Virus record (IMG/VR): IMGVR_UViG_3300044646_002092
Location: 52,445-116,444 of that record
DNA length: 64,000 nt
Reading direction: 5' to 3' (one strand)
From: a virus
Position 1 is the first letter of the stretch. Each line of letters starts with the position of its first letter. This document shows positions 15,714 through 50,089 of this stretch, piece after piece. The translations under genes and the position numbers were made by a program. The notes beneath the pieces are model-generated. The model was not told the origin of the DNA and searched no databases. It saw nothing but the letters and a program-made list of their open reading frames with translations.

Positions 15714-17110
15714 AAGTATTGCTTAATTTGTTCAAATTCACTACCAAGCCAATTCCAAAAACTCACATTGTCCCAGCTATACACCCTTTTGGGCAACGGC
15801 TGGGACATCACACTGAAGGCACTCGCGCCACTTTCAAGGTAAATACCGTTACATAGTCCTAAAATACCGCCAGCTATAGAAAAGAGATTGGAGTTTGTTG
15901 CGATTGTAGTTGCGTAAGAAGTTACAATGTTGATGTCTGCCGAATTTACTCTGAGACGTAGTTCTGTAGCTGTTTTTTGAACCCAAATGTGTTGCCAAGC
16001 ATTTGTGGGCGCGACCCACGAAGTTGAGATAACTGCACTGCCATTGATAGCCACCTCAAGATTATTACTGCTCGTTTTTTTAAGCGCAAACACACCATTC
16101 TTTTCTGCCAACGTCGCTTGACGACCTGCGGTTGGGGTCGTAAAATAGCAAAAACAATTGAAAGTGAACTCATTAGGAAAAACAACATCTTCATAAGATA
16201 TAGATGTACCCGCAGAAGCTACTAAACACTCGGTTCCAAATAATTTCTTTTCTGACTCATATTCAATCCCCGACATTGATGCGATTTTTGAATTGCTGCT
16301 CTGGTCACTCAACCTACCATTGAAATCTAAGTGTAGGAGGCTCGAATTATTACTTGGGGATACATATGACATTAAATCTACTGCAACGTCTGGAATCCTC
16401 AAAACGAGACTATTAGAATAAATGATAGAATTTGGCTTGAGAGTTGTAGGAATCGAAATATCCGCCTCGAACCAAATGTTGTTGCTTGCATCAGTAATTC
16501 TTGCGAGATTTATTGTGCTATTAATACTCGGTAAAGTCTGCGTGTTACCATACTCGAAAAATATCTCGCCAAGTGTACCGATTTCTTTTTTTGACCATTT
16601 GCTCGGTGTCAGTGCTAGTGTGGCTTGCAGCGTATTGTTATTGTTGTAATACTTGGCGCTCAGCGCGCTGGGAAAGAGCGAAGCTGTACCTTTGAATAGT
16701 AAGTTAAGTATAGCGTTGCTAAGCGTAGCCGTGCCAAAGTCCAGTGTCAGTGTTAAGCCTGTACCAGAGTAGAGAGTTAGTTCGCTGCCAGCCTCTATGG
16801 TGACATCAGAAAATGCAGCATTAGCAACGATAATGCCGTCAGAGGTAGTAAGGCGGAGGGAGAGGGGTAGCGCATAGGTTGAGATGGCAGCTCCGAAATT
16901 GATGTCGAGTGTGTTAGTGCAAATGTTGTTTGTAATTATCCAGTAGCTTGCGTCTAGATTGAGCGCTGAGATGCCAAACAGTGTGTTGGTGATGTTAGTT
17001 CCGCTTGTGTCATGCAGAGTAGCTAGAATTGGCAAAGAAGCTGCTGTGATGGTTTGCTGCTTTATTACTTTTTCTGTGATATCGACGCAAGTGCTGAAGA
17101 GTGTGGTCAT
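15710..17110 (-). CDS. Virion protein with a C-terminal LamG-like domain
   Basis: SLLHLDFNG...KLFGT...FTFNCFCYF...WQHIWVQK. Confidence 0.7.
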   Translation of the reverse strand: MTTLFSTCVDITEKVIKQQTITAASLPILATLHDTSGTNITNTLFGISALNLDASYWIITNNICTNTLDINFGAAISTYALPLSLRLTTSDGIIVANAAFSDVTIEAGSELTLYSGTGLTLTLDFGTATLSNAILNLLFKGTASLFPSALSAKYYNNNNTLQATLALTPSKWSKKEIGTLGEIFFEYGNTQTLPSINSTINLARITDASNNIWFEADISIPTTLKPNSIIYSNSLVLRIPDVAVDLMSYVSPSNNSSLLHLDFNGRLSDQSSNSKIASMSGIEYESEKKLFGTECLVASAGTSISYEDVVFPNEFTFNCFCYFTTPTAGRQATLAEKNGVFALKKTSSNNLEVAINGSAVISTSWVAPTNAWQHIWVQKTATELRLRVNSADINIVTSYATTIATNSNLFSIAGGILGLCNGIYLESGASAFSVMSQPLPKRVYSWDNVSFWNWLGSEFEQIKQYF

Positions 17111-17559
17111 TCTAAAGTAAATTGAGGGACAGGTCTTTTTATTTTTATCCCACTCTTGATAGTGGGTACAGGTTCTTCCATCATTCCGCCAAACCCTTTA
17201 AATGGGTCTTTGCGGAATCCTAGATACCCCGTAGGACTAGCTGCTGTGTCAGAAACTTTGCGAATATCTGTAAATCCTTCTGAAATTGGTATACGTTTTG
17301 AGGTTGAGTATTTCTCAGAGGGCATATATACTTTAGCTTTTGGGTTATCGTTCTTATATTTGTTTCCGTCCCAATACATAGATTGCCTAGCTAAATACAT
17401 GGGTGTATCATCAGCCCAACCGCCCATAACTTTTTGATGAGTCTCGATGTCATATCCTGTATTGTTCAGATAGTTTTTGTTCCCTTGGTCTAATTGGAAC
17501 TGTTTTTTCTTTAACCTATTAACAGTTCTAGTAATTCCGAAATCAGCAAAGTGTTGCAT
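17107..17559 (-). CDS. HFANF-tag protein A (paralog of 49589..50089)
   Basis: Starts MQHFADFG; shares DIRKV.D.A.S..GY.GFR.DPFKG.GGMMEE with its paralog. Confidence 0.7.
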   Translation of the reverse strand: MQHFADFGITRTVNRLKKKQFQLDQGNKNYLNNTGYDIETHQKVMGGWADDTPMYLARQSMYWDGNKYKNDNPKAKVYMPSEKYSTSKRIPISEGFTDIRKVSDTAASPTGYLGFRKDPFKGFGGMMEEPVPTIKSGIKIKRPVPQFTLE

Positions 17560-17627
17560 ATTAGTCTTTAAGTAGTTAATCTTATTGTACCAAAGAGGTA
17601 TTGCAATGCAAATGATATTGTGGTAAT

Positions 17628-18122: not shown

Positions 18123-18138
18123 CTAAATTTCGCTGACG

Positions 18139-18166
18139 TTCTTTTCTGCATCGAGCGTCAGCGAGT
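18139..18166. repeat. 28-bp dispersed repeat, copy 1 (TTCTTTTCTGCATCGAGCGTCAGCGAGT)
   Basis: 27/28 identical to 50099..50126; here it also forms a 9-bp stem (TCGCTGACG/CGTCAGCGA, 18130-18164). Confidence 0.85.
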
Positions 18167-18189
18167 ATCTCAATCGCCGAAGGGCTAGA

Positions 18190-19076: not shown

Positions 19077-19077
19077 A

Positions 19078-19521: not shown

Positions 19522-19613
19522 ATACCCTGAACAACAAAGTAATCACAAACTTCCGCGACCATCCATCCCTCCGTTTCAATGACCCACAATCTGTATTCAA
19601 AATCGATGACAAA

Positions 19614-20233: not shown

Positions 20234-20334
20234 ACCGTGATTCCATTACTTTATTTCATAAACTACCGTAGCATACTGAGTAAATATACCTTCAGACAGA
20301 TGCAGAAAAGAGAATTGGCGCTTAGTATGGAGTC

Positions 20335-20427: not shown

Positions 20428-20432
20428 TTGGC

Positions 20433-23941: not shown

Positions 23942-23942
23942 T

Positions 23943-25016: not shown

Positions 25017-25096
25017 AGATTATGTCTTTATATTTACAATAACTATATTAAAGCACATCTAGTTTAGTAAAACATCTATCTAAAGACATATATAAT

Positions 25097-25124
25097 AAAA
25101 ATCCAGCCGCTAAGCTGGAAAAAA
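25097..25124 (-). terminator. Rho-independent terminator after ruvC (possibly bidirectional)
   Basis: TCCAGC/GCTGGA stem flanked by A-tracts on both sides. Confidence 0.75.
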
Positions 25125-25184
25125 TTGTAAATATAAATAGACAACTCCAAGTTTACTATAAAGTGAGATATTCCGTCTATTATT

Positions 25185-25646
25185 TTACTGAATATAACAT
25201 AAAAATAATCCGAGTGAGTCTGCGGCATGATTCTCGTCTTTTGTGAATACTTTACTGGGAAACACTTTTTGTACAGCAGCTATAACATCCTCCTTCTCGC
25301 TTTTTCCAGAGCCAGTTACAATTTTTTTCATCTCGGTCGGTGTGTAACTTTTTTCTATTAAGTCCCGCTTTTTAGCTAAACACCGCATTATGCCAATAAC
25401 TTGATTCAACTTAGCCCCTACCTGCCCTTTCATAATAGGCTCTTCGTAAACAAACACGCTTGGACTATATTTATTCAGTAGTTGCTCAAAGTGCAACGAG
25501 TACTCAACAAGTTTGTCTGTAAAGCCTTTACTCTTTGTAATTATGTTTTCACAATAGAGTAAATCTAATTGCCCTTTATCGTTAAAGTCAACTATACTAA
25601 ATCCGCCAGTCGCGTATCCTACATCCCAACTCAGCACTCTTGTCAT
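25185..25646 (-). CDS. ruvC: RuvC-like Holliday junction resolvase
   Basis: LSWDVGY, YEEP, YTPTEMKKIVTGSGKSEKEDV, HAADSL. Confidence 0.9.
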   Translation of the reverse strand: MTRVLSWDVGYATGGFSIVDFNDKGQLDLLYCENIITKSKGFTDKLVEYSLHFEQLLNKYSPSVFVYEEPIMKGQVGAKLNQVIGIMRCLAKKRDLIEKSYTPTEMKKIVTGSGKSEKEDVIAAVQKVFPSKVFTKDENHAADSLGLFLCYIQ

Positions 25647-25680
25647 AATAGTAAAATATAAATAATAACAAGCCTAACAC

Positions 25681-26586
25681 ATGACACTATCGCTCGATTA
25701 TATAGCCACAAACTCACTTCCCTGCCGTAGTTATCTGGACTTCACTAATGTTGCATACACCTCTATAGTTGGAGCAACCTTCACTCAATTAAACCTCACT
25801 GGCAACACAGATTACGATTTTATCTCTACAGGTCTATCTAATCATCCAACAAGGGGCGACTTTGGCATCCAATTTACTTCTGCCCAGAAACTATCTCCTC
25901 GCGTGTCAGGTATCATTTCAGGTGCTTCTAGTTATTCTTTACTCGTTGTGTCGAGAAATTCAGACAACTCGTTACTAAAAATAGGCAAAACCAACCCAAA
26001 TCTACCGAAACTGCTAGAAATTGACTATACAGCCACTAACTTTGCACAGAATTACTCACGACTGAACGTTGCTGACCGAGAATTAACACTTGGCGACCTC
26101 GAAACTACACAAGTTTGCCTACTTTCACATGATGTTGTTACTGGAGTGACCAACACATCGATAAATTTGACTGATTTTCAACAAAATACCAAACTTGATG
26201 CTGGATATATGTTGCCAAACTTGTCCTCATTTGTTTTAGGCGAAGGATTTGGCGGGGAACTACTTAATTTCTTACTTTTTGTGCCAGCTATTGAAAATAT
26301 ACATCTTTTGGAGCTTGGGCGACGGGTATCAGATTATATCCCGCAATCAGAACTAAAATTTGACAAATTGCTACTGACAACTGAGAGCAAACTAGAACTG
26401 GCAACCACATTCTTTTCTGCACCCCGAATCATGTACAATCTACCGCTAAAAATAAAAAACCTAGAGACAAACTCTAAGCTATTATTTAGTAGTAATTTAA
26501 TAGTTATTGCAAGCTATTTATGGGACAACCTTAGTGGTGCTAATTGGGATGCAACCTCTGAGGCGTTATGGGACTCAATGGGCTAA
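25681..26586 (+). CDS. Hypothetical virion protein (LamG-like)
   Basis: 301 aa; ends ...WDNLSGANWDATSEALWD, similar to the terminal W-D motif of 15710..17110. Confidence 0.6.
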   Translation: MTLSLDYIATNSLPCRSYLDFTNVAYTSIVGATFTQLNLTGNTDYDFISTGLSNHPTRGDFGIQFTSAQKLSPRVSGIISGASSYSLLVVSRNSDNSLLKIGKTNPNLPKLLEIDYTATNFAQNYSRLNVADRELTLGDLETTQVCLLSHDVVTGVTNTSINLTDFQQNTKLDAGYMLPNLSSFVLGEGFGGELLNFLLFVPAIENIHLLELGRRVSDYIPQSELKFDKLLLTTESKLELATTFFSAPRIMYNLPLKIKNLETNSKLLFSSNLIVIASYLWDNLSGANWDATSEALWDSMG

Positions 26587-27261
26587 CTAATATACGAACC
26601 CGTTGTAACGTCGCACTTTGAAGTTGGCAAAGGGGGAGGTATTCATAGAAGTATTTGCAGACTTCATTGGTTTGGCTCCACGACCAAACCTATTATCTAA
26701 AGGAAGTACGCCATCTGCTTCTGCTCTACTTAGGTCAGTAATTCCATTTTGCTCGTAATTTTGTTTCGCATTTTTTCTTGTCTTATTAACAAAATCTTGA
26801 GTTGCATCTTCTGCTGGTACTGCAACTGGTTTAGCCGCAGGTAACTGAGCTTGCTGTTTAGGTGCGTTAGGTGTAAATGGCTGATTGTTAATCGGTGTCT
26901 GAGTTACATTTGTAGCGGAAGCATTAGTAGTAGCTGGCAACATAGCCTGATTACCGACTTGCCCTGCTTTACGTGCTTGCCAAGCATTCTTTAGTCTAGA
27001 ACCGCCATAACCCGCAGCACCACCTAAAGCAGCACCACCACCGACTTGACCAGCAAGATTACCAATCGATTTGTCATCGCTACCAAGATAGTTAATTGCA
27101 CCGACTCCTGCGCCGATACCAGCACCAAGTTTAGCGGCTCCTCCAGATGTAGAGAGCGCTTTACCAGCTTTAGTGCCAAGTTGCCCTGCCAATCCTGCCC
27201 AATCGACAGCAAAATTGGCGTATTTAGGATTTGTTGCTAATGCGTATGCGGAAATTCTCAT
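26587..27261 (-). CDS. Gly/Ala-rich low-complexity protein with ANF motifs at both ends
   Basis: PKYANFA near the N-terminus and SPFANFK near the C-terminus; GAG-rich hydrophobic segments. Confidence 0.65.
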   Translation of the reverse strand: MRISAYALATNPKYANFAVDWAGLAGQLGTKAGKALSTSGGAAKLGAGIGAGVGAINYLGSDDKSIGNLAGQVGGGAALGGAAGYGGSRLKNAWQARKAGQVGNQAMLPATTNASATNVTQTPINNQPFTPNAPKQQAQLPAAKPVAVPAEDATQDFVNKTRKNAKQNYEQNGITDLSRAEADGVLPLDNRFGRGAKPMKSANTSMNTSPFANFKVRRYNGFVY

Positions 27262-29543: not shown

Positions 29544-30274
29544 TACAAGTACCCCACACTAGAAGTTTGGTCAGCAGCATCACCTAATGTTAAAGTTGTT
29601 TCTGTTGTACTAAAAGCCCATGACACACCAGTATTACAAGCACGACCAGATGCACCCCAAAAAGCAATGTCAAGTAATAGTGCTGAATTGGGGGCTATTG
29701 GGAATGACTCAATCGGCACATCATTATTAACGGGGGCTGCTGCTTTATTGTGGATTTGAAAAAATCTTACAGATGTACTTTTGTTATAGCAATACAGCTT
29801 ATAAACTACACCTGCACCAGCCTTTAATACCGCTTGGTTAACTACACCGAGGTTTACAGGAGAATTGGTGAAAGCAGGTATCGTTTTAATATCAATACTA
29901 GATAGGGCTGTGTTTCCAGTAGTTTGTAAAGCACTTGTACTAGCGCCTGTTGGCAGAGAAACCGTACCGCTAATATTGGTTACATCCCAAGAACCTGATT
30001 GAGTTACAGCTTGTGGACTTGCAAATACTACAGAATTACCATTACTTGCAATTACTATTCGTTGGGTTTTTGCATCTACAACTCCAGCCCCATACTGAAT
30101 TGAACTATTTGAAGTTATATCCGAGGAACTCTCACCATCAGCACCAATACCTAATAGTCCGTTGATTGTGAGAAGTCTATTTATTTGATTTTGCTCAAGC
30201 TTAGAGCCACGCACAGAATCTAAATAAGACTCCAGACCAGCTTTTTCTGCTTGTAATTTATCTGTAAGCGCCAT
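29543..30274 (-). CDS. Hypothetical virion protein
   Basis: KAGAGVVYKLYCYN...FFQIHNKA beta-sandwich C-terminus. Confidence 0.6.
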   Translation of the reverse strand: MALTDKLQAEKAGLESYLDSVRGSKLEQNQINRLLTINGLLGIGADGESSSDITSNSSIQYGAGVVDAKTQRIVIASNGNSVVFASPQAVTQSGSWDVTNISGTVSLPTGASTSALQTTGNTALSSIDIKTIPAFTNSPVNLGVVNQAVLKAGAGVVYKLYCYNKSTSVRFFQIHNKAAAPVNNDVPIESFPIAPNSALLLDIAFWGASGRACNTGVSWAFSTTETTLTLGDAADQTSSVGYL

Positions 30275-32910: not shown

Positions 32911-35610
32911 ATGACACTAATTAGACCATCAACAATATATTATTATCGAACTAAAGCAGTAAATTTGAATGGAGAATCCCCATACTCAAATATAGTTTCA
33001 GTAACAACTCCTGCGTCCTCACTTGGCATTGGCGTTACTCCTCCTTCCCCATCTCAGCCCTTAATCATAACGGTAGAAAAGAATAGCAACTCTATCAGGG
33101 TAGAATTGCAAAAAGCTGCTCCTAACGAGTACCTAAAAGAGTTAAAACTTGATGTATCGGTAAACGCTGACTTCAGCGCACCACTTTACTCTAATCTAAC
33201 GTTTTTACTAACGCAAAATATTGCGGCGACAGAAAAAGAAACTCTGGCGCTTACTATTGGCGGCTTAGCGGCAAATACGCTTTATTACTACCGCTTGCGT
33301 TTCTCAAATGCAACTGGACTTTCGGCGTGGACTTCAGCTTCACTCTCTACTACACCAAATTTCCCTATTCCAGACCTCCTCGGCACAACCAATCTCACAG
33401 CTATTGCAGCTCGACTAAACTGGGGCAAAGTGACTGGCGCAACTACATATTTTGTAGATTTATCTACAAACATTGGCTTCACTTCATTAATCCTTAATAA
33501 TGTCAATGCAGGAGATGTCAGTTTTCGAGATGTAGGGTCACTTACGGCTGAAAATCAATATTACTATCGTGTAAGGGCTTCGGATGGCACAACTACCTCG
33601 GCTAGCAGCGATGTAGTGACTTTTACGACACTTCGAGATGTAGAAACTTATGATGAGCAATTTCAGAATCTCGCAACACCGACAATCAGCAACATAACAG
33701 ATATTTACCTCACTTATTTTTCTGTATACTGGGGCAAAGTGGCTTTAGCGGATAGTTATAATGCTCAAATTTCAACTACATCTGACTTTAGCTCGATTAC
33801 TCAAACCGTAAGTACCAAAAATAACTTTGTCAATTTCACAGGTCTAACGGCTGCAACAATCTACTATGTTCGAGTACGGGCAATCTCTGTTTGGCAAACT
33901 ACTACGTATTCAGCCACACAAGTCGTCACAACGCTTTCCCTAAATACTTCATTAAATCCACCACAACTTCTTACACCAACTACAATAACCTCGAAGAGCA
34001 TTTTGTTCCAATGGGTTCTACGCAGCTATGCCACTCGTTATTTGTTTGAGCTAAGCACTTCATCAGTTTTTGCTTCTAGTGCTTACTCGACTATTGTAGG
34101 TAATGTTGGGTCTTTGCTACTAAATGAAGGTATTAGCCCCGCAACAACCTATTATTCACGTATTAGAGCGCTCAATTCTAGTCAGTCCTCAGATTACTCC
34201 AACTCTGTCACTACAACGACCTCAGCAGCCCTTACAAGCATAACTGGAGTCACTACAACTAGTATTACCGATACTTCGGCAGTTATTGGCTGGACTTTGA
34301 ATGGTAGCTACACCGATTATTTGCTTTCAGTGTGGAAAACAGAGTCAAATGCTTATTTAGGAGTCAACTTCTATCGTAATAAGAGCCTTGGGAACACTAA
34401 CACGCACACAATTGACCTATTCTTAGAGCCAAACACCAATTACAGCTACACAATCGCTGGAAAAACAGCTTCTGGGGATACTTTAACGACTCCCGTACAG
34501 ACTTTCTCGACCAAAGCGGCTGCACCAATACTTCAACTAGCTAAAAATCTGCTCACTTGGACTTACAATCTCGACAATCTCGAAGTTAGCACTGATTCTG
34601 ATTTCAAATTCTTGCTTAAGGGGTATCCAAGAAGCGTAGCGAACAATGGCAGCTTCAATGCAGAGAATTTGCTTGACTCTAGTACCAATTACTATATTCG
34701 CGGCAACTTTGAGGGGGGCATCTACTCCAATATAGTCAGTACATCAGCTTTGGCGGTTTACAAAGGCATTATTGGAAAGACTTCCTTTTCTGCCTTCTGG
34801 AAACGTAATGCTGGAGCTACTTCATACAGTGTTCAACTAAAAGTGCTAGATACTGGCAATTATGTGCCTGTAAGTGGTTTCACGTTCCCTAAAAATGTTG
34901 GTGACGTTAGCAGCTACACATTTGAATCTCTTTCTGCCGACACACAATATCAGGTAATTATATATGACTCAAGCTCAAACGTTTCTATCCCGTATTTATT
35001 CAAAACTAATCTGTTTAGCGATACAGAGGAACCTACTACTGCATCTCTTACGATTCCTACAGTAACTCTTGACGGAAGTGCTGATTTTGACCGAGCTAGT
35101 GTAGTGCTAAGTGGTTATTCCAAGTATCTGCTCAATTTGGCGCGAGATAGTGCATTTACGCTCGATAATACTTATTTTGAGAGCAGTTCCAATAATATTG
35201 AGCTTCTGCTTAAGCCTAATCGCACATATTACCTACGTGCTTACGGGTATAACGGAGATGACCGCAGTACTGACCCTTCAACTACCCTTACAATCAATAC
35301 ACCCATTGAACCATATACTGAGCTTACTATCTCTTCAGCGCCAAGCATTACTAATATCAATATACTTGATGAGTCACAAGTCGAACTAACTTTTTCGCAA
35401 GTAGTTAACGCAACTGACTACACGCTTGAGATTAGTAGAGCAAATACCTTTACAATTCTTGAGGAGCTGAGTGTTACAAGGTCTGCTGATAACAAATTCT
35501 TAATCTTCGGATTGAGTGGAACGACTGTATATTACGCTAGACTGTATGCTTTCAATAGCACCAAAATCTCTGCTTACTCATCTACAACTACGGTGGACAC
35601 AACCCCATAA
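32911..35610 (+). CDS. Multi-fibronectin type III (FN3) virion protein
   Basis: Repeated L.P.T.YYYR.RA.N..G.S.YS units. Confidence 0.85.
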   Translation: MTLIRPSTIYYYRTKAVNLNGESPYSNIVSVTTPASSLGIGVTPPSPSQPLIITVEKNSNSIRVELQKAAPNEYLKELKLDVSVNADFSAPLYSNLTFLLTQNIAATEKETLALTIGGLAANTLYYYRLRFSNATGLSAWTSASLSTTPNFPIPDLLGTTNLTAIAARLNWGKVTGATTYFVDLSTNIGFTSLILNNVNAGDVSFRDVGSLTAENQYYYRVRASDGTTTSASSDVVTFTTLRDVETYDEQFQNLATPTISNITDIYLTYFSVYWGKVALADSYNAQISTTSDFSSITQTVSTKNNFVNFTGLTAATIYYVRVRAISVWQTTTYSATQVVTTLSLNTSLNPPQLLTPTTITSKSILFQWVLRSYATRYLFELSTSSVFASSAYSTIVGNVGSLLLNEGISPATTYYSRIRALNSSQSSDYSNSVTTTTSAALTSITGVTTTSITDTSAVIGWTLNGSYTDYLLSVWKTESNAYLGVNFYRNKSLGNTNTHTIDLFLEPNTNYSYTIAGKTASGDTLTTPVQTFSTKAAAPILQLAKNLLTWTYNLDNLEVSTDSDFKFLLKGYPRSVANNGSFNAENLLDSSTNYYIRGNFEGGIYSNIVSTSALAVYKGIIGKTSFSAFWKRNAGATSYSVQLKVLDTGNYVPVSGFTFPKNVGDVSSYTFESLSADTQYQVIIYDSSSNVSIPYLFKTNLFSDTEEPTTASLTIPTVTLDGSADFDRASVVLSGYSKYLLNLARDSAFTLDNTYFESSSNNIELLLKPNRTYYLRAYGYNGDDRSTDPSTTLTINTPIEPYTELTISSAPSITNINILDESQVELTFSQVVNATDYTLEISRANTFTILEELSVTRSADNKFLIFGLSGTTVYYARLYAFNSTKISAYSSTTTVDTTP

Positions 35611-35614: not shown

Positions 35615-36292
35615 ATGATGAAAAACTTCGCTAATTTCAATCTTAGACCTGAAAAAATAAATCTTTACGATAGCAACATAAAAAAAGTTGACTATGTTCC
35701 GTCAATGGGGCAAGTTATCATACGAAATTATCCTGAAGATGCTTTAGACCAAAAAAACGCTAGAGAGGAATTTCATAATGCAAAGAAAGCTGAAAAAACT
35801 AGAGTAGTACCTCAAGTTGGTAAAGATGTGGTAAAACAATCTGACGGAGCAGTGGCATATACTCAAAAATATGGTGGGCGAATGTTGGAAGATTATATTG
35901 ATGATATGTCCCCTAAGCAGAAGTATAAACTTGGTAATCAATTAGGGCGAAGCCAAAGCCGACTAGTTGAACAAGCAAATCTCTATCATGACGATATATT
36001 CGAGAGAAATGTCACTATACCTAATCCTAAGAAGAGCAAAGCTTATCTCATAGATAATGCTTCACTTCAAAAGGTTACGCCAGACAACATAAAATACGCC
36101 AGAAAAGTAATTGGACTACCTGATATTGTAAGTAAAGGATTCACTAAAGGTATACGATTTAACAGTATGAAACACTTCGCTAACTTTGCAAATATTTATC
36201 AGACTGGACTGCAAAATCTGATTAGTCCTGTGGTAGAAAAAGAAGCTAAGAAATACGTCAGAAAAAAGAAAGAAGAGCAGAAAGAGGAATAA
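35615..36292 (+). CDS. Protein-kinase-like (Bud32/RIO/APH-type) protein flanked by FANF motifs
   Basis: alphaC-like REEFHNA, hinge YTQKYGGRML, catalytic loop HDDIFERN (HxDxxxxN), YLIDNA at the DFG position; MKNFANF at the N-terminus and MKHFANF at 36167. Confidence 0.65.
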   Translation: MMKNFANFNLRPEKINLYDSNIKKVDYVPSMGQVIIRNYPEDALDQKNAREEFHNAKKAEKTRVVPQVGKDVVKQSDGAVAYTQKYGGRMLEDYIDDMSPKQKYKLGNQLGRSQSRLVEQANLYHDDIFERNVTIPNPKKSKAYLIDNASLQKVTPDNIKYARKVIGLPDIVSKGFTKGIRFNSMKHFANFANIYQTGLQNLISPVVEKEAKKYVRKKKEEQKEE

Positions 36293-36440: not shown

Positions 36441-37970
36441 CTAGGCTTGAGGCGCTCCCTCTTGAGGAGGATATTGCTCAGCTTGTCCTTCAGGTGGCGG
36501 CATAGGGGCAGACATCTGATTTATTTGAGCTTGAAGTGCAAGAACTTCACTTTGTTTTTGCAACTCTTTTTGTATCTCAGCTTTGAGTGCATCTTCTTGC
36601 TTCTTGGCTTTTTCTTCTTCGTCGAGCGAAGGTAGTCCAAGATTCTTACGGATGAGGCTAAGTACCTCAACATCATCAGCAGGAATAATGCCAGATGCAA
36701 TGAGTGAAGTGATGGTGCTGAGACGACCGTTGACTGTTGCTTGGTCTTCTTCCACATCAAAAACAAATTCTCCCCAATCTTCGCTGAACCAGCTTGAAGG
36801 AAAGTTGTCATGTAGCAAGCCACGAATCATCTTGTGAATAATTTCGTGCTTGAGTGTAGTTGTTAGCGCAAAAATAGTTGAGTCAAAGGTCATTTTGAAA
36901 TTCTGACCAAAACCATTGTTGCCTAGATTTGTCGTGCCTGAACCGCTATTAACGTCGAAGATGCCTGAAGGTATTGCGAAGCTCGATTGAATGCCTCTAT
37001 CGATGTATTCTAGAGCTTTGAAGTGATTTTCGCTAGTATTTTGTATTTGGATGCGAGTAAGTTCAACGTCGTTATCAGTGACAATGAATCCGCGTTTTTG
37101 AATGTCTTTTAGTTGGTGCGAAAGAGCCGCTTGTTTTGTTAATTGAAGTGGTTTACCCTTGCTGTCTTTTTTGACGTTACCTTGGGTGTCAACCATTGTG
37201 GTCGTGCCGTTGTTGGGTGTTTTTGCCCAGAGTAGACCTTCGCTGTCGTTTTTGATGCGGAGAGCTAGGTGCGTGAGTACTACACGTTTTAGGCGATAAT
37301 ATGGCAGCGCTGATATACCGTCCCCAATACCCCAAACACTTGAAGCGTCGAATGCTGAGCCGCTATTGTTAATTATGTGTATACATTTCTGATATGGAAT
37401 TTTTACTTCCTTTCCATCTCCGTTTCGATACAAAATCCATTCAATCTTGCCCGATTGAGTTGATGACTTCCCAAAAGAAACTATTTGGTCAGGATTCAGG
37501 ACGTTGATATTACCTATTCTCCATTGCCCCCTGTACCCTCGCAGCTTTGATGATTTTGTAAATTCCGCAACTCCAACGCCATGTAGGATAACTGAGGAAA
37601 GTAACTTAAATATAATTTGCTTGAAACTTTTGGGGAGCGTTTTTAAATTACTATTTACAAAAGCCTCTATTTCTTTCTTAGGATGTGAATATTCTCCGAA
37701 ACTTTGGGTTGCCCTAAGTGCTTTAAATGATAAGCATTGGCTTGCTATGGGGTCACGGCTCGCCATGAGCGACATTTCGCGAATTGGAGGACGCTCGGTT
37801 TCTGTAGGATGGTTAATTGCTTGTAGTGCTAATCCTGTGAGCGACGCAATTTCTGTGGAGTATTGTCCTTGTTGAAGTGCTGCCATTGGCGTAGGGGTTC
37901 CAGCAAACAGCAAAGAATCGTCTAGGTCTTCTAATAGGTTTAACTGAGTTGCTTCCTCGAACATTGGCAT
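36441..37970 (-). CDS. Phage portal protein (DUF935/Mu gp29-like)
   Basis: 509 aa; M..RDP....CL..KAL, GV.V.E, WG.G....ALPYY.LKR, ID..I...F.IP and a Q/P-rich tail fit a portal architecture. Confidence 0.65.
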   Translation of the reverse strand: MPMFEEATQLNLLEDLDDSLLFAGTPTPMAALQQGQYSTEIASLTGLALQAINHPTETERPPIREMSLMASRDPIASQCLSFKALRATQSFGEYSHPKKEIEAFVNSNLKTLPKSFKQIIFKLLSSVILHGVGVAEFTKSSKLRGYRGQWRIGNINVLNPDQIVSFGKSSTQSGKIEWILYRNGDGKEVKIPYQKCIHIINNSGSAFDASSVWGIGDGISALPYYRLKRVVLTHLALRIKNDSEGLLWAKTPNNGTTTMVDTQGNVKKDSKGKPLQLTKQAALSHQLKDIQKRGFIVTDNDVELTRIQIQNTSENHFKALEYIDRGIQSSFAIPSGIFDVNSGSGTTNLGNNGFGQNFKMTFDSTIFALTTTLKHEIIHKMIRGLLHDNFPSSWFSEDWGEFVFDVEEDQATVNGRLSTITSLIASGIIPADDVEVLSLIRKNLGLPSLDEEEKAKKQEDALKAEIQKELQKQSEVLALQAQINQMSAPMPPPEGQAEQYPPQEGAPQA

Positions 37971-38003: not shown

Positions 38004-38924
38004 TTATACCGTACTAGATGCGTGATTGAGTTTCTCTTCTTCGGTAGCGTATCTGTAATTTACAAAATCAGGGCTGGAACTTTTTATTCTTTTGCCTAGG
38101 GTAGCCTTACTTATACCTTCTAATTTTACAGCTAATCTCATCGATTCGTAATAAACATTATTTACCAAAACAGGTATACTACTAGGAGTACCAGCACCAG
38201 TCAGTTTTGCACTTATTTTAGCTCTAGCCTCCATTGTCACATCTCTTCCCATAGTTGCAGCGCTAATTTTAGCTTTAGTTTCTTCAGATGTAACTTTACC
38301 TTTCTGAAAAGCACTCATTTTTGCTCTGCTCTCAGTAGTGTGTACTCTACCCTTATTTATAGAGGCTAAATACACTATTCTTTCTTTCATCTCATCTGTA
38401 AAGGGTCTATCTTTCGCTATTTCACTCATCTTTGCTTTTGTTTCTTCAGTATGTTTCCTACCCTTACCAGCCAAACTGATTTTTTCTCTTGTTTTTTCTG
38501 AGACAATTCTGCCAGTACTTGCAGCACGCAACTTAGATTTGGTTTCCTCGGTATGCTTCTTGCCAAGTCTAGTCTGCTGACCTTTTTTGGATGCCCTCAT
38601 TTTAGCTTTCATCTCTTCTGTAAGATTAACCCCACCCCTCCCGCCAAGACTTATATTGTAGGTGTCTTCACGTTTGACAAATTCTTGAGTTACCATTTCA
38701 GCTTCGGCTAAATAAGCATCAGTAGCACAACTAAATTCAGCCAGTGTAGTCCTAATAAATTTATCTTTACCATACTTCTTCACAGCCAACTGTAAAGCAT
38801 CCCCACTTCCGATATAACACTTAGACTTAGAAGTATTTGAAAGCTTATGCACCCCCACATAAATTTTGCCATTACAAACGTTCGTAGTTTTATATAAAAT
38901 CCAAATCTCTTTATTTGTTTCCAT
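38004..38924 (-). CDS. GIY-YIG homing endonuclease with NUMOD3 repeats (copy 1)
   Basis: ILYKTTN..NGKIYVGVH...YIGSG...AVKKYGK..F; HTEETKAKMS repeats. Confidence 0.9.
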   Translation of the reverse strand: METNKEIWILYKTTNVCNGKIYVGVHKLSNTSKSKCYIGSGDALQLAVKKYGKDKFIRTTLAEFSCATDAYLAEAEMVTQEFVKREDTYNISLGGRGGVNLTEEMKAKMRASKKGQQTRLGKKHTEETKSKLRAASTGRIVSEKTREKISLAGKGRKHTEETKAKMSEIAKDRPFTDEMKERIVYLASINKGRVHTTESRAKMSAFQKGKVTSEETKAKISAATMGRDVTMEARAKISAKLTGAGTPSSIPVLVNNVYYESMRLAVKLEGISKATLGKRIKSSSPDFVNYRYATEEEKLNHASSTV

Positions 38925-43232: not shown

Positions 43233-43628
43233 TTAGAAATTTACAAAGTGCTGGAAATTACTACTGAAGCCGCCGTACTGACCAACCTGAGCATTTTGTT
43301 GACTTTTCCAGTTACCAACACTAGTTTTTCGACGAATCACACCGTTTGCGTCATAGAACTCATCTGGGGCAAGAGGTTTTTGAGGATTTCTAGGTGCTTG
43401 TTGCTTACTCATACCACGACCCACGCTGGCGCTTGCAATTGCCTCCTGCCTGTTCAAGCTAGGAGGAGCATTCTGCACTACTGCTGCCCTCTGGTCACGA
43501 GTCAGCGATAAAGGAGAAGCGTTTAAGGGAGAATTTCCCCAAGTCGGCACGTTGGGTTGTTGAGGCTTAAATGCTTGACGTAGTTGAGAGGCTTTGTTTG
43601 AAATTGTTGGTAGAAATGTTTGTGGCAT
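43233..43628 (-). CDS. Q/P/N-rich disordered protein ending in FQHFVNF
   Basis: C-terminal motif resembles the HFANF tag. Confidence 0.6.
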   Translation of the reverse strand: MPQTFLPTISNKASQLRQAFKPQQPNVPTWGNSPLNASPLSLTRDQRAAVVQNAPPSLNRQEAIASASVGRGMSKQQAPRNPQKPLAPDEFYDANGVIRRKTSVGNWKSQQNAQVGQYGGFSSNFQHFVNF

Positions 43629-43856: not shown

Positions 43857-44726
43857 ATGAGTGATACTTGGATACTTTATCAGACCACAAATTTGGTTAA
43901 CGGTAAAATTTATGTAGGGGTGCATAAATTGGCTGATACTAGCTATTCTAGAAGCTACCTTGGTAGTGGCTGTGCTTTAAAACCAGCTATCGAAAAATAT
44001 GGGAAAGAAAATTTTAGAAGGGCTACACTGGCAGAGTTCTCTTGTGCTAAAGATGCTTACGAAGCCGAGACTCAAATGGTTACTGAGGAGTTTTGCAATC
44101 GAAAAAATACTTATAATCTAAGAATAGGTGGTGAAGGCGGTATTTTCACAGAAGAAGCTAGAGTTAAAATGAGTGCGGCAGCTAAAGGAAAACAACACAC
44201 GCCTGAAACTAGAGCAAAAATGAGTGCTTCACATAAGGGAAAAATAATAACGGCTGAAGCTAAGGCTAAAATTGGCGCGGCTTCTAAAGGGAACAAACAT
44301 CGGTTAGGTAGTGTTGCTTCATTAGAGACAAGAGCAAAAATGAGTGCTTCTCAAAAAGGTAGAACTGCAAGCGAAGAAACTAAAATTAAGCTCAGCAATG
44401 CAGCTAAAGGAAGAGTACTTAGCGAGGAACATAAAGCAAAATTAAGTGCCTTACGCACAGGTAGAACTACAAGTGCTGAAACTAAAAATAAAATGAGTAT
44501 TGCTAATGGTAGACCTGTTGTACTGCATGGTAAATACTACACATCGAGCAAAAAAGCTGCTAAAATCAATGAAATAGCTCACACTACTTTACGATGGAGG
44601 CTCAATAATCCTTCTCTTAACTGGATAGAATGGCGCTATGCTACAGAAGAAGAAGTTGCTAACTTTTTGAGAGAGGGAGTTGCGGAGGTTCAAAATTTGT
44701 TTGATAACGTTGTGCGCCATACGTGA
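43857..44726 (+). CDS. GIY-YIG homing endonuclease with NUMOD3 repeats (copy 2)
   Basis: ILYQTTN..NGKIYVGVH...YLGSG...AIEKYGKENF; HTPETRAKMS repeats; 3' end overlaps the convergent fibre gene. Confidence 0.9.
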   Translation: MSDTWILYQTTNLVNGKIYVGVHKLADTSYSRSYLGSGCALKPAIEKYGKENFRRATLAEFSCAKDAYEAETQMVTEEFCNRKNTYNLRIGGEGGIFTEEARVKMSAAAKGKQHTPETRAKMSASHKGKIITAEAKAKIGAASKGNKHRLGSVASLETRAKMSASQKGRTASEETKIKLSNAAKGRVLSEEHKAKLSALRTGRTTSAETKNKMSIANGRPVVLHGKYYTSSKKAAKINEIAHTTLRWRLNNPSLNWIEWRYATEEEVANFLREGVAEVQNLFDNVVRHT

Positions 44727-47700
44727 TTCTGAACGACTGAATGTAACCTGAAAAATTGGTAATTGCATAGCCAATATTCAAAGTTTCTGTCCAATCCATG
44801 TTAGTATTCTTTAATTTATCGGTCAAAACTCCATCTATATAAAGTTTTGTAGTTTTATTAGTTGCAGAATTAACCAGAGCAACGTGAAACCACTGCTTAG
44901 CCTCAATTTCAGCTATAGCGGGACTTGTGTAGTTTGGTTGACCCTTATAACACCTCAACGTCGCCTCATCATTGAACGCAAATATCTTAGGTGAAGTTGC
45001 CCCACTGGAAAGAATGCCTTGAAGGATGCTATCAGAATTATATGTACTGCTAGAAGAGGTTACATCACCTACTATTGGCTCTGGAATATACTCAATCGCA
45101 TTTGTCACATCTCCAATTGAAATATTGTTACTACGAGTAAACACTCCTGAAACTGCTTGAATACTTGTATTAAATGTGCTTGATAACGACGAATAAACGC
45201 GATACCCAACAGCACCAATTTTTTTCTGCCATTCCGCAACAAATCCTTTTTCTGCCTTAACCCTATTTGGCTCTACAATAGGTGACTCAATTGCTGAATT
45301 TGTAGCAACCAAAACACTATTAACATCTCCGACCAACTTATTATCAAATCCATCTAATTTGGTAGAAAAATCAGATGTCTGAGAAACATCGACTATATAA
45401 TCTGTGGCTCCTTCAACATCACTCCAACTAATATCAAATGAAGTAGGTGTGACCGACGATGCAGGACTTGCGACAGGAGCAGAAAGAGAGAAGGTAGTAA
45501 GGGAGGGTAGGTAAATATAAAATTCAATGCAGTAGTCTTGGTTTGCACTAATTGGTTGTGATAAATTTGCCACAATACTGCTGCCTTGACCATCAAATTT
45601 CATCGATTTAAGTAAACCCGTAGGATATGTATCTGCTACTACCGATACATTATTTATTGCTAAAACGCAGTCATGTAAGCTCTCATCGATAATAGTTCCT
45701 GTTGTAGTAGCTTGAATGAAGAGCAGTAAATTGTTGTAGTAGGGGTCGGGTAAATAAGCAGGGACTACTGCTGTACGAGTCAATACATTGGAGGCTTGAT
45801 TAGGTGTCCCAATTGCAGAATTGACAGAATTAGCCAAAACTGCTAAGCTAAAATCTCCGCTTGCGTTAGCTTGCACTTCAAAATTGAAAACGTTGTTATT
45901 ACTTGCTTTTATTAATCCTCCTACAACACAGTTAGTGAGAGTGAGGGCATCAAGCCCGAACGCTGGAGCATCTTTGTTTAGTGTAGCTGTTGCATAGAGC
46001 TTATAACTGTTGTCATTGGGCTGCGTAGTCGATAAAACAATAGTAAATGGACTATTCTCTATGAATACTGAAGTTCCATTTGTCGTCGATGTGAAATTTT
46101 TGTTCGGTAAGCTTGGCTCATCATGAATAACAATGTTGAAATACACTTGTTGGTCAATAGTCTCGTTGACGAGAAGAGTAGCAACATAGGTATTGTATTG
46201 GGTGTTAGTAACCGTTGCAGTCTTACCTAAAATCGTTACTACAGGCAAATTTGTAAGCTCGATAATACTATTGAAGGTCAAAGACAGTGTATTGCCGTTG
46301 ACAGCCTTATTTGGCACATTATTATCTGATACCAAAGAAATATAGTCAAGCAGTTCACTAACATCAAGGATATTTGTTACTTGGCTGTAAGGAATCAGTG
46401 GTACATCATGTTGGTAAGCTGTATAGAGGGCTTTACCTACAGTAAGTCGAAGATTCGACAGAAAATAAGGAGCCTGAGTTACTCGGTTTTTATAATATCC
46501 AACTTTGAGCGCTCCACTTGAGATATTTAGGAATGTAGACGACCCCACAAGTCCAATACGAACTCCATTACGATAAAAGCGGTATACGTTGCCTTTTTTG
46601 GTAATTGCAAAGTGTGGAAATTTCTGTTGCAGGGTGTATGCACCATTCTCATAAGCTGGGTAGATAGGATTTCCGCTTGAGAAGATATCAGATTCCCGCA
46701 AAGTAACCGCAGGGAACAAGTTGCTCGTCAGGTCAATGCTACGAACTACCTGAATATTTCCATTAACAGCCAATACTGCAAAGCCTGTACCTGCTTTTTC
46801 TACAGAAAAGAGATGTGTAGTGTTCTGAGGGCTGTAAGTGTTGCCTCGATAATGAAACTCGATAGTCCAATCACCATTCATCACTAAAGATGAACCTTGA
46901 CCAATCGCCTCGAAGTTATCATACGTTAATCCAGACTGCTCTAATTGAGGCACTACGGCAAGAGAGCTATTTGTGCCTATAGGGAAGACTGTAGAGCTAA
47001 ATAACGTGTTGTTGGGTACAATTTCGCTAAGTTGGTAAGCATTTGGCGAAACATCATAGAAAGTATTGGAGAGGTCAAGAGGTAATTGCAAAATAGGGAA
47101 GGCTTCGGCGTAAATTCTTGCAAGCAAGTTACTTTTTGAGGAGCTAATTGCACCATCGGTAATGCCAGCACCTTCAATAGCCTGAACGTATACCACACCT
47201 TGTTTTTCGGGTGTAACGTTGAATTGATATGTCTGCGTTACTTCATCAATTAAAACTAGATTGGAAAGAACTCCATTGCTCACCCCAACCTTAGTAATAT
47301 CGAAAGTCTCAATAGCTGCATCCCAAGTAAGAGTACAAGTAAAAGTTTCATTGATATAAGGGCTTGAACCGCTAGTAATAGTTGGTACAGGGGCATTTTT
47401 GTTTATAACATAAGATTGTCCCTGAAAACTCAATTCGCCAATGTAGTTTGAGATGAGTGTGTTGATACCCTTATACCTCACCGTTCGCCTATCTACAAAA
47501 TTCAGCCCAAGTTTACCATTGCCAGTTCCAGTATCAGCCGTTACAACATATTCAAGCTCGTTATTTTTATCTATGGTTATTAGAGAAGCGCCTGACACGC
47601 CTTCTATCTGAGTAAGGCTAAAATCAGCCAAAACTAAACTATCGACTGCCTGAGCAACGTAAACATACCACTGACAAGTACCTGTACTGATAGAGGGGTT

Positions 47701-49581
47701 GCCTACGACTGGGACAATCGCAAGAATACGTGCTTTGGGGTGAGTGAGGACACCTGTAGTTAGTGGCAGAGGTTGGAGGCAGTGGGAGTAGAAATAATCG
47801 TTAGGAACTGTAGTACTTATAAATCTACTAGCATTAGTAACCCGCAAACCCTTGACACCGATAGTTCTTCTAGCAGACCCAGCAGAACTTATCCAAGGCG
47901 TATACAAACTACCAAAAGAAAGTTCTAGTTTGTTTATTTCTTGATACAAAGTGCCAGCATAAGCAACAGTTTTAACTAAAACACCATTGATGTAAAAGTA
48001 GAGGTTACCTTCTGACCTAGAGACTGCTATATGGGTGTTTGGCTCTGCAAAAGGAGAAGCGATAACCGTAGTACTGGTCGATATATTTGAAGTTACACCT
48101 AAGTTGCTATAAAAAACAATATCTGTAGAAGGGATTGTAATTGCAGGATAAGCATTGAAAGCTGAAGCATTTATTATGTTCCCAGTCTCTGAAGGCATAC
48201 TTTTCCAAACATTGCCGTCTTCACTTATACTAAACGTCAAATAAGGTACTGTGTTCCTACCATAAACTACATTGCCATCTGAATAATGATTAAAATCTAT
48301 TGTTGCAACTATTTTGCCATTAGATGTTAGCTTTAAGAGGTTTACTTTTTCTATACCTTCTGTAGCCGAAATATTACTGCTTAGCCAGCTAGATAGTGTT
48401 TTTGCTGTCGTAATCGGTGCATTATTTTCAAACAGACCCAAATAGCATTCCATAGTCCATTCAGACGCAGATAAATTTGTCTCAATCTGCTCAGAAGTGT
48501 AAACAGTGTTTCCATCTAACTCAATAAACCCAGTATTAAAGTTTGGTGTTTTTTGTCTCAGTGTTTCATTGGCTAACCTTTTTGTATTTGAGGCGTAGTT
48601 ATAAGTATCAAACTGTAAAGGAAAATTGAATAGCACATTGGCATATCTTGGGTCAATGCGGTTAGCTATACTTGACTTAGGGAAAGGTAGTGTTGCGCTG
48701 TAGAAAGTTGAAGGATATCGGACAATATTTTTTGTAATGCGGAAGTTGGAAATACCTCCACTGAAACTTGCGTCTATTAAGTTTTCTGTGCTTGCACCAA
48801 ACCAATTAAAAAACGGCGAAGCACCTAAGAATAGTCTATAGTCTCTTGTATCTATGTTGTTAGATGCAGAATGAGCCAAGTTGAAACTGCAAGCTGTTGC
48901 ACCAGTTTGTATAAAGTTAAGAAACGTTTGTAAGATATTGCCGACACGCTGTATGCAGACCGTGTAAAAAGTGTTCGCAACAATTGGTGATGTGTTTACT
49001 TTGAAGCTAGTACCCTTGGCAGAAAAATGAAGGTCTGAGTTGACTAAGAATAAACCGTAACCACCGCTTGCACCTAAAGTGGGTGGGGCAGCAGGATTAA
49101 ATCCATTCCAGTTTAAACAGCTATTTACAGAAAAAATAGTTTGTATCGGTACTATGCTATCTGTGTAAAATGATATCTCGATAGTAAAATTCCCAGTACC
49201 AAGACTAAAGCCTTCTGACCACCCACTTAATTGAACATCCGCATAGGTAGGCGCGACCAACGATGTAGTTTGACCTATATTAAGCTCTGCGGCTCTATTG
49301 ATGCGATTAACTGCGTTTGGGATATACAAGCAAGAAGAGACACCCACAAGGCTAGGAAACCCTGATGTTGGATAGCTTATAGCAGAATCAAAGTCAGAAC
49401 CAGTGTAATTCTTGACGTGGCGCTGAAAACGCGAGTAATCGCGGCTGAAAGGTAGTCCTCGACTGTTATCGGTTGCACTGCCTGAGATAAGTAAGATAAC
49501 GTCGTTGAAATATACGTCCTCGACCACAGAGTTCGTGGCATCGGCGCTTGCTAAGTATTTTGCGAGTGTTTTGCCTTCCAT
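44659..49581 (-). CDS. Very large multi-LamG / Ig-like virion protein (1640 aa)
   Basis: Four or more LamG units (FTIE.., SNFRITK..RY, DPYYNNLLL) plus FN3-like and Ig-like segments. Confidence 0.8.
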   Translation of the reverse strand: MEGKTLAKYLASADATNSVVEDVYFNDVILLISGSATDNSRGLPFSRDYSRFQRHVKNYTGSDFDSAISYPTSGFPSLVGVSSCLYIPNAVNRINRAAELNIGQTTSLVAPTYADVQLSGWSEGFSLGTGNFTIEISFYTDSIVPIQTIFSVNSCLNWNGFNPAAPPTLGASGGYGLFLVNSDLHFSAKGTSFKVNTSPIVANTFYTVCIQRVGNILQTFLNFIQTGATACSFNLAHSASNNIDTRDYRLFLGASPFFNWFGASTENLIDASFSGGISNFRITKNIVRYPSTFYSATLPFPKSSIANRIDPRYANVLFNFPLQFDTYNYASNTKRLANETLRQKTPNFNTGFIELDGNTVYTSEQIETNLSASEWTMECYLGLFENNAPITTAKTLSSWLSSNISATEGIEKVNLLKLTSNGKIVATIDFNHYSDGNVVYGRNTVPYLTFSISEDGNVWKSMPSETGNIINASAFNAYPAITIPSTDIVFYSNLGVTSNISTSTTVIASPFAEPNTHIAVSRSEGNLYFYINGVLVKTVAYAGTLYQEINKLELSFGSLYTPWISSAGSARRTIGVKGLRVTNASRFISTTVPNDYFYSHCLQPLPLTTGVLTHPKARILAIVPVVGNPSISTGTCQWYVYVAQAVDSLVLADFSLTQIEGVSGASLITIDKNNELEYVVTADTGTGNGKLGLNFVDRRTVRYKGINTLISNYIGELSFQGQSYVINKNAPVPTITSGSSPYINETFTCTLTWDAAIETFDITKVGVSNGVLSNLVLIDEVTQTYQFNVTPEKQGVVYVQAIEGAGITDGAISSSKSNLLARIYAEAFPILQLPLDLSNTFYDVSPNAYQLSEIVPNNTLFSSTVFPIGTNSSLAVVPQLEQSGLTYDNFEAIGQGSSLVMNGDWTIEFHYRGNTYSPQNTTHLFSVEKAGTGFAVLAVNGNIQVVRSIDLTSNLFPAVTLRESDIFSSGNPIYPAYENGAYTLQQKFPHFAITKKGNVYRFYRNGVRIGLVGSSTFLNISSGALKVGYYKNRVTQAPYFLSNLRLTVGKALYTAYQHDVPLIPYSQVTNILDVSELLDYISLVSDNNVPNKAVNGNTLSLTFNSIIELTNLPVVTILGKTATVTNTQYNTYVATLLVNETIDQQVYFNIVIHDEPSLPNKNFTSTTNGTSVFIENSPFTIVLSTTQPNDNSYKLYATATLNKDAPAFGLDALTLTNCVVGGLIKASNNNVFNFEVQANASGDFSLAVLANSVNSAIGTPNQASNVLTRTAVVPAYLPDPYYNNLLLFIQATTTGTIIDESLHDCVLAINNVSVVADTYPTGLLKSMKFDGQGSSIVANLSQPISANQDYCIEFYIYLPSLTTFSLSAPVASPASSVTPTSFDISWSDVEGATDYIVDVSQTSDFSTKLDGFDNKLVGDVNSVLVATNSAIESPIVEPNRVKAEKGFVAEWQKKIGAVGYRVYSSLSSTFNTSIQAVSGVFTRSNNISIGDVTNAIEYIPEPIVGDVTSSSSTYNSDSILQGILSSGATSPKIFAFNDEATLRCYKGQPNYTSPAIAEIEAKQWFHVALVNSATNKTTKLYIDGVLTDKLKNTNMDWTETLNIGYAITNFSGYIQSFRITYGAQRYQTNFEPPQLPLSKS

Positions 49582-49588
49582 TCAGGTA

Positions 49589-50089
49589 TTATAGCTTAGT
49601 AGCCATTCCCGAAAGTCTACTATAATATCTTTTCTTTTTCTCAAATATGCCGTTAGGATAAACCTCATTCAATGGAATACCTTCTTCCATCATCCCACCA
49701 TAACCTTTAAACGGGTCTGTTCTAAAACCGACATAACCAGAATCGGAAATAGCCTCATCTTTTACTTTACGAATATCACTCCAACCAGTCTTAGGGATTT
49801 CAGGTTCGCGCCGTTTACCATCATAAGTGTACGACTCAGCACCTAAAGGTTTTGTTAAAGGGTCTTTCCCAGCTTCAGATTGCCCGTACCATTTTTTATT
49901 TTGTCTTGCAATGCTTACTCTATTATCAAAAATCTCTTTGGTAGCTTCTGGACTTGTTGCAGTTTGTGCTAAATTACCGTAAGTATTGTTCGGTTGATAC
50001 TTGCGTCTAGGGGCTTCACCAGCCTCGTATAGACGTTTTAATTGTTTATTAGCTTGTTTGACATAACCAAAATTTGCAAAATGTTCCAT
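49589..50089 (-). CDS. HFANF-tag protein B (paralog of 17107..17559)
   Basis: Starts MEHFANFG; AAGAAGG RBS. Confidence 0.7.
   Translation of the reverse strand: MEHFANFGYVKQANKQLKRLYEAGEAPRRKYQPNNTYGNLAQTATSPEATKEIFDNRVSIARQNKKWYGQSEAGKDPLTKPLGAESYTYDGKRREPEIPKTGWSDIRKVKDEAISDSGYVGFRTDPFKGYGGMMEEGIPLNEVYPNGIFEKKKRYYSRLSGMATKL

Follow-up and report, generated by a model that had tools for sequence, protein, structure and literature searches.

To our knowledge, signals that target proteins to the capsid or virion of a phage have been demonstrated experimentally in very few cases, essentially those of T4 and of DarB from P1. The T-even phages have internal proteins that form a diverse set whose sole common feature is the capsid-targeting sequence (CTS) (PMC3012670), which in T4 reads MKTYQEF (bioRxiv 10.1101/2021.01.19.427310). 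In P1, an N-terminal packaging signal of at most 30 residues is sufficient to load a large enzyme, DarB, into the capsid for delivery to the host (PMC9024508). Here we describe a heptapeptide tag carried by unrelated proteins of a viral genome fragment and of its relatives. The window that was analyzed is a stretch of 64,000 nucleotides corresponding to bases 52445 to 116444 of the 116,444-bp single-contig record IMGVR_UViG_3300044646_002092. The tag is constrained at the level of the peptide, is specific to one viral lineage, occurs in many unrelated protein families, and is strongly associated with purified virions.

In the phage collection, the record has as relatives Pseudanabaena phage Pam2 (ON014754, 142.9 kb) and PA-SR01 (MT234670, 137 kb), both siphoviruses with heads of roughly 90 to 100 nm and tails of about 300 nm (PMC9382816, PMC10286775). 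The protein encoded at 49589-50089 of the window shares about 93% amino acid identity with its Pam2 counterpart and about 41% with that of PA-SR01. The window is inverted in orientation relative to Pam2 and contains genes for the portal, tail fiber, tail protein, and tape measure protein. The record starts just downstream of TerL and ends inside the tape measure gene, and the equivalent of Pam2 gp2 to gp28, which is the head module including the capsid protein and the protease, is missing; the record is therefore incomplete. The tag carriers are a small lineage of freshwater cyanobacterial viruses, the Pam2/PA-SR01-type cyanosiphoviruses.

The tag was counted in three genomes (the record described here, Pam2, and PA-SR01), and the two complete genomes were scanned with a family-weighted position-specific scoring matrix (PSSM). 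Weighted by family, the consensus reads M-[QKE]-H-F-A-N-F, with a small or polar residue next; in a broader form the heptapeptide is Phi-x-H-F-[AV]-[ND]-F, and it usually makes up the first seven residues of the protein. There are 36 instances in 31 proteins, of which 24 begin at Met1, 6 lie inside the protein, and 6 are found at the C terminus or close to it. Pam2 has 11 tagged proteins and PA-SR01 has about 13, and the record has 9, 5 of them encoded in the window and 4 outside it. When the tag was masked, BLAST clustering divided the 31 proteins into 13 clusters with no detectable homology between clusters. PSSM scores were bimodal: true tags scored 20 to 29 bits, and almost nothing fell at 9 to 16 bits. 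Five N-terminal tags were observed among the 179 predicted proteins of the record, compared with 0.0015 expected from residue shuffles, an excess of the kind anticipated in the sequence-only reading (an earlier interpretation of this DNA made without database searches); core motifs at any position of the same proteins numbered 10, against 0.22 expected. Chance or paralogy alone is ruled out as an explanation by the shuffles together with the tag-masked clustering.

The whole-genome scan added three N-terminal bearers outside the window (genome coordinates), namely, 198-884 (MKHFANF), 29993-30214 (MNFANF), and 48924-49379 (MQHFVNF), as well as an internal QMQHFTHF...ANF in a kinase-like gene at 3684-4718 (344 residues). 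This last instance belongs to a group in which histidine occupies position 6 (HFTHF or HFAHF) and a second A-[NDS]-F always follows 3 to 8 residues on, as if the tag had been split or duplicated; the cases are Pam2 gp41 and gp186, residues 192 to 214 of the kinase-like protein of the genome described here, and PA-SR01 QIW88437 and QIW88544. KNNFVNF, found internally in an 899-residue protein of the window (32911-35610), is without conservation in Pam2 and probably a chance match.

At synonymous positions the motif is spelled with different codons (TTT/TTC, GCT/GCA/GCC/GTA, AAT/AAC/GAT, and CAT/CAC), runs of identical DNA between tags are short, and the DNA upstream of the tagged genes is unrelated. 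Because synonymous codons vary and the upstream DNA is not shared, the constraint acts on the peptide and not on a nucleic acid signal. A DNA-level regulatory element at gene starts, such as a promoter, ribosome-binding site, or downstream box, was also considered and is ruled out by the synonymous variation, the unshared upstream sequences, and the internal and C-terminal copies. Beyond the three genomes, IMG/VR was scanned for DNA encoding MQHFANF in one spelling only, and 24 stretches were returned. Matches in contigs of 93 to 148 kb with a GC content of 0.39 to 0.42, which are Pam2-like, sat at the starts of open reading frames (ORFs) or at the kinase junction described below; five Pam2-like genomes had several strict tags each. 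The scan for this one spelling gave no evidence of the tag in other lineages, the matches in unrelated contigs having other GC contents, looking noncoding, and being chance-like. A search for the motif strings gave no relevant paper in the searchable library, and the papers describing Pam2 and PA-SR01 (PMC9382816, PMC10286775) make no mention of the motif.

Association with the virion was assessed from the list of Pam2 proteins detected by mass spectrometry (MS) of purified particles (PMC9382816, Table S2). Of the 11 tagged Pam2 proteins, 10 are MS positive (gp39, gp41, gp42, gp44, gp46, gp57, gp118, gp186, gp187, and gp189), compared with 17 of the 180 untagged proteins (Fisher's exact test, P = 6e-9). 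The association persists when paralogs are collapsed to families, with 7 of 8 tagged families being MS positive (P = 1.7e-6), and it upholds the proposal of the sequence-only reading that the motif marks virion proteins. Tagged proteins account for 10 of the 27 members of the reported Pam2 virion proteome, and gp118, gp186, gp187, and gp189 are MS positive though encoded far from the structural genes. That reading had also raised the question of whether the major capsid protein, the other head proteins, and the protease carry the tag. [quoted passage not shown] That the canonical structural proteins are untagged is as expected of a cargo tag. The idea that the tag mimics a repeat of the head scaffold was ruled out, as the head-module proteins contain no tag-like repeats.

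As in the T-even phages, the same N-terminal peptide is found on unrelated proteins (24 Met1 tags in 13 masked clusters), and the tagged proteins are present in the purified virion, here by way of Pam2 orthologs or paralogs. The two systems share a Met1 peptide common to diverse and fast-changing virion accessory proteins, cargo genes that are scattered and exchangeable, a prohead protease in the lineage, and a loose pattern (M, K or Q, an aromatic residue at position 4, an acid or amide at position 6, and F at position 7). They differ in that the tag described here belongs to cyanobacterial siphoviruses with a phrog_976-type protease, has no detectable sequence homology to the CTS, also occurs at the exact C terminus, at both termini, and internally, and is borne by cargo that includes a kinase and a helicase. 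By analogy with P1 DarB, the tag may be an N-terminal signal for loading enzyme cargo into the capsid; the P1 signal, however, has been described for one protein in the ordered Dar assembly pathway, whereas the tag is found on about ten families. Short terminal peptides also dock cargo inside HK97-fold shells, with no need for cleavage, in the case of encapsulin cargo-loading peptides and the C-terminal tail of the HK97 prohead protease. The tag resembles these in being short and in occurring at either terminus, but the sequences and lineages differ and shell binding by the tag is only putative. A further parallel is found in the junction motifs of polymorphic toxins, such as VENN in CdiA, where a short conserved motif precedes swapped, unrelated C-terminal modules. 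The kinase family described below likewise switches modules right after the motif; unlike VENN, the tag mostly starts at Met1 of free-standing genes, shows no conservation of its DNA, and is carried by phage virion proteins.

Translation of the five tagged ORFs in the window (Table 1) confirmed the positions at which the sequence-only reading had seen the motif; the protein encoded at 35615 begins with MMKNFANF, and its MKHFANF near the C terminus is as described. The five are, as stated there, unrelated apart from one paralog pair (17107-17559 and 49589-50089; E = 6e-24), and 35615-36292 is paralogous to the kinase-like gene outside the window. The claim that all bearers lie among virion genes did not hold, as 17107-17559, which is on the late strand within an otherwise nonstructural region, and the three bearers outside the window that are located in early or replication regions are exceptions; of these, two are encoded on the late-gene strand, namely, 17107-17559 and genome 48924-49379. 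Searches of the nine carriers of the record against Pfam and PHROGs gave no informative family, the only match being a weak, low-complexity one between 26587-27261 and phrog_342. The carriers comprise Bud32/PRPK-like kinases, a DEAD-box helicase, disordered proteins rich in Gly and polar residues, and a family, F1, without a fold match. Compared with untagged proteins, the tagged ones are higher in Gly and polar residues and lower in hydrophobic core residues. The terminal motif ...PEQ(E/Q)EPPY, which is common to the extreme C termini of the protein encoded at genome 48924-49379 (minus strand), Pam2 gp118, and PA-SR01 QIW88544, may be a second terminal motif.

The F1 family includes the genes at 17107-17559 and 49589-50089. 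The N-terminal tag is present in 58 of 58 homologs, followed by FGYVKQANKQLKRL; three of these deviate from the strict pattern, either in one residue or because the start was called further upstream. M1, H3, F4, F7, and G8 are invariant at a mean column identity of 22%, making the tag the most conserved part of the carrier. In the structural model of the 49589-50089 protein, residues 1 to 6 are predicted to be coil and a helix begins at F7, and a fold search with F1 returned no match in the PDB. At the other end of the protein, a C-terminal block, G-Y-x-G-F-R-x-D-P-[FY]-K-G-[FY]-G-G-M-M-E-E, is strongly conserved in all 43 aligned members. The placement of the tag at either or both termini, another part of the sequence-only reading that was sustained, together with its view of a lineage-specific tag on unrelated proteins, is illustrated by two other families. 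In the 43233-43628 family, the tag forms the exact end of the protein in about 35 of 41 homologs, and 2 run on into other modules. Many of these homologs (P0135, P0141 to P0144, and P0167 to P0173) have an extra ANF, ADF, or SDF at residues 4 to 9, as in MQTANFLMG and MTYQSADFFL, so that tags at both ends are frequent in this family; the window copy is without the N-terminal one. In the 26587-27261 family, both copies of the tag are kept in all three phages.

The kinase-like family consists of the genome 3684-4718 product (minus strand), Pam2 gp189, and PA-SR01 QIW88440, with the window gene 35615-36292 (plus strand) as a paralog. Sequence comparison of the kinase-like protein with the PDB gave nothing useful, and a fold search was needed. 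An AlphaFold model, confident at residues 9 to 187, had as its top match human PRPK, a Bud32 homolog (7szc_A; TM 0.62 on the target), followed by RIO1 and many protein kinases; H125, D127, N132, and D147 are invariant in the family, and several homologs are named Bud32 or ABC1-like by the Joint Genome Institute. The kinase fold is confirmed by this search, and genome 3684-4718 and window 35615-36292 represent two paralogs of a minimal protein kinase, of the Bud32/PRPK/RIO type, in which the catalytic residues are intact. As the Pam2 ortholog gp189 is part of the virion proteome, a virion-borne kinase is likely.

The tag follows the catalytic domain in this family, with a degenerate copy at the N terminus, and in the model it marks the drop in confidence from the folded domain to a disordered tail; together with the coil at the start of the F1 protein, this placement indicates an exposed tag. 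About 65 kinase-like homologs are conserved through ...NFTQ[QH]KQ-MQHFANF and then diverge into at least eight unrelated C-terminal modules, one of which has a free-standing tagged homolog encoded at genome 198-884; some forms end 3 residues past the tag. An internal copy is also found in PA-SR01, in a 598-residue protein annotated as a DEAD/DEAH helicase (25081-26877, minus strand), which was compared with the metagenomic genome G001 (65384-67900). It consists of residues 1 to 134 of one G001 gene, up to its internal tag (92% identity), joined to the whole of a tag-initiated G001 helicase (93% identity). The two matches overlap by exactly the seven residues of the tag, and the 234-residue C-terminal module of the upstream gene has been lost. 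As judged from this alignment, the PA-SR01 helicase arose by precise tag-to-tag deletion. Such a deletion explains internal copies that retain Met, and the internal Met is therefore not read as an internal translation start. That alternative was not adopted, given that the cases reduce to one old kinase-tag fusion and one recent deletion; cyanophage start sites are without a clear ribosome-binding site.

We consider it probable that the heptapeptide functions like the T4 CTS, as a short linear address tag by which accessory proteins with no other relationship are sent into the virion. From the observations above we infer docking, a receptor, a location in the head, injection, and any cleavage. 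During assembly of the particle, the exposed, unstructured tag would dock on a common receptor, the most plausible candidate being the inside of the procapsid or its scaffold, in the way that the T4 CTS loads internal proteins. The cargo, comprising a Bud32-like kinase, a helicase, and Gly-rich disordered proteins that are possibly membrane active, would then be delivered with the DNA. Enzymatic and disordered cargo fits action inside the host better than external decoration of the tail. Recombination from tag to tag, which would be possible because every cargo module begins with the same tag, would swap and fuse modules and thereby give rise to the internal and C-terminal copies. A fuller version is more tentative, and we hold it only as a possibility: that a position-independent tag, whether N terminal, C terminal, or between domains, loads reshuffled effectors into a siphovirus for delivery to cyanobacteria (an active Bud32-like kinase, a DEAD-box helicase, and Gly-rich membrane-active modules), doubles as a recombination joint, and constitutes an engineerable code distinct from the T4 CTS.

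Several points weigh against targeting to the virion as the function of the tag. The resemblance to the T4 CTS, to which the sequence-only reading had appealed, proved to be superficial: on the tag PSSM, MKTYQEF reaches 1.3 bits, a score equaled or exceeded by 10 of about 474 untagged N termini (about 2%), and homology to the CTS (MKTYQEFIAE) was rejected on this score. The MS evidence consists of presence/absence calls and comes from Pam2, not from the genome described here, and presence in a virion preparation is no proof that the tag causes incorporation. Pam2 gp37 is tagged yet MS negative, the sole such exception, and nonstructural proteins without the tag (RuvC gp59, gp79, and gp146) are also MS positive. 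The PSSM scan found no scaffold or capsid protein with a complementary or tag-like element, and with it no receptor. Four of the tagged Pam2 genes cluster beside tail-tip and fiber genes, which makes an association with the tail possible. In F1, conservation runs about 15 residues beyond the tag, so that part of the signal is family specific. The internal copies may be passive recombination scars and not functional.

It is possible, though we regard it as unlikely, that the motif is mainly a recognition or cleavage site for the head maturation protease, in which case N-terminal copies would be clipped, internal copies would split polyproteins of kinase and module, and C-terminal copies would mimic the end of a product. 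The lineage does have such a protease (Pam2 gp14 is a homolog, matching phrog_976 with an E value of 2.5e-5), and this homology leaves room for the tag to be processed. The tag also lies always exactly at a domain or module boundary, and the 43233-43628 proteins that end at the final Phe and the kinases that stop shortly after the tag would suit processed ends. However, the usual substrates are untagged, with the major capsid protein and its neighbors, among which the scaffold is expected, scoring below 9 bits, and in SDS-PAGE the apparent size of the PA-SR01 major capsid protein is close to that predicted for the full-length protein (PMC10286775). The sharp module boundary, moreover, is explained by tag-to-tag recombination as well. 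A cleavage site would be compatible with targeting, as one leader does both in T4.

Less likely still is that the tag serves as a plug by which accessory proteins dock at the tail tip or baseplate, in the tail lumen, or on the tape measure complex rather than in the head. Other phages are known to have interchangeable receptor-binding proteins that carry a conserved N-terminal docking peptide, and Pam2 gp37, gp39, gp41, gp42, gp44, and gp46, as well as window genes 43233 and 49589, lie between genes for tail proteins, tail fibers, and giant proteins. The cargo, however, is not adhesin-like: an ATP-dependent kinase, a helicase, and disordered proteins rich in Gly and polar residues fit a role within a cell and not on a fiber, and several tagged genes (gp118 and gp186 to gp189) are far from the tail genes. 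Fiber, spike, or adhesin-type receptor-binding proteins were tried as a class for the carriers and did not fit the kinase, the helicase, the disordered proteins, or F1. Docking on a partner unconnected with assembly, either the phage's own Bud32-like kinase or a host factor after injection, with presence in the virion having another cause, seems improbable to us. Short aromatic docking motifs are common in kinase signaling, and the kinase family is itself tagged after its catalytic domain, with its degenerate N-terminal copy; yet this idea leaves the 10 of 11 carriers in virions unexplained, and in PA-SR01 proteins of every kind are tagged. Least credible, and very improbable in our view, is that the peptide has no function at the protein level, being a linker kept as a recombination joint or a relic of hidden common ancestry: the precise deletion in PA-SR01, the joining of at least eight modules exactly after the tag in kinase homologs, and the paralogy of some carriers are in line with it, but synonymous sites are free and identical-DNA runs short where a DNA-level joint should show the opposite, the invariance of M1, H3, F4, and F7 against the 22% background identity points to selection on the peptide, the 13 masked clusters are without detectable mutual homology, and the association with virions would be left unexplained.

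Table 1. Tagged genes and neighboring structural genes in the window (window coordinates; MS refers to Pam2 particles).
Feature	Coordinates	Strand	Tag	Relationships
F1 family, 150 residues	17107-17559	-	MQHFADF, residues 1-7 (17539-17559)	Paralog of 49589-50089 and of Pam2 gp41/gp44
Gly-rich low-complexity protein, 224 residues	26587-27261	-	NPKYANF, 27211-27231 (PKYANF, residues 12-17); SPFANF, 26620-26637 (PFANF, residues 210-214)	Pam2 gp57 ortholog (MS positive)
Second kinase-like paralog, 225 residues	35615-36292	+	(M)MKNFANF, 35615-35638; MKHFANF, 36167-36187 (residues 185-191), after the kinase domain and followed by a 34-residue tail	LYHDD..N and LIDN motifs; 36-40% identity to kinase-like proteins of this genome, Pam2, and PA-SR01
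Portal protein	36441-37970	-	Untagged	85% identity to Pam2 gp50 (portal, MS positive)
Q/N/P-rich protein, 131 residues	43233-43628	-	FQHFVNF, last seven residues (43236-43256)	Pam2 gp46 ortholog (MS positive)
1,640-residue protein between two tagged genes	44659-49581	-	Untagged	Pam2 gp45 homolog
F1 family, 166 residues	49589-50089	-	MEHFANF, residues 1-7 (50069-50089)	Pam2 gp44 ortholog, 93% identity (MS positive)
Tail fiber homolog	50128-51738	-	Untagged	Pam2 gp43
Tail protein, bordering variable slot 51741-54077	54077-56761	-		Pam2 gp36 homolog
Tape measure protein, cut by contig end	59211-63998	-	Untagged	Pam2 gp29

Two features of the surrounding gene content stand apart from the tagged genes of the window. 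The variable slot at 51741-54077, between the tail protein and tail fiber genes, holds four tagged genes and a predicted anti-CRISPR gene in Pam2; here it holds five small accessory genes on the opposite strand without homologs in Pam2 or PA-SR01. Adjoining the portal gene, an ORF of 306 residues (38004-38924, minus strand) is 45% identical to the Seg-like homing endonuclease gp85 of Pam2, which is located at another locus there, and it probably encodes a mobile endonuclease.

What sets the tag apart is the sequence itself, its occurrence in a lineage of siphovirus cyanophages, its use at module joints as well as at both termini, and, foremost, the independent proteomic support. Because this support comes from a cultivable pair, Pam2 and Pseudanabaena mucicola, the proposed role of the tag is directly testable. 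If it is correct, it would explain about one-third of the Pam2 virion proteome, made up of proteins of unknown function encoded throughout the genome, and foreign proteins could be packaged into a cyanophage by means of a handle of seven residues. It would also predict that a protein kinase and a helicase are delivered into the host with the DNA, and the tag-to-tag fusions offer a concrete picture of how the set of cargo proteins evolves in these viruses.

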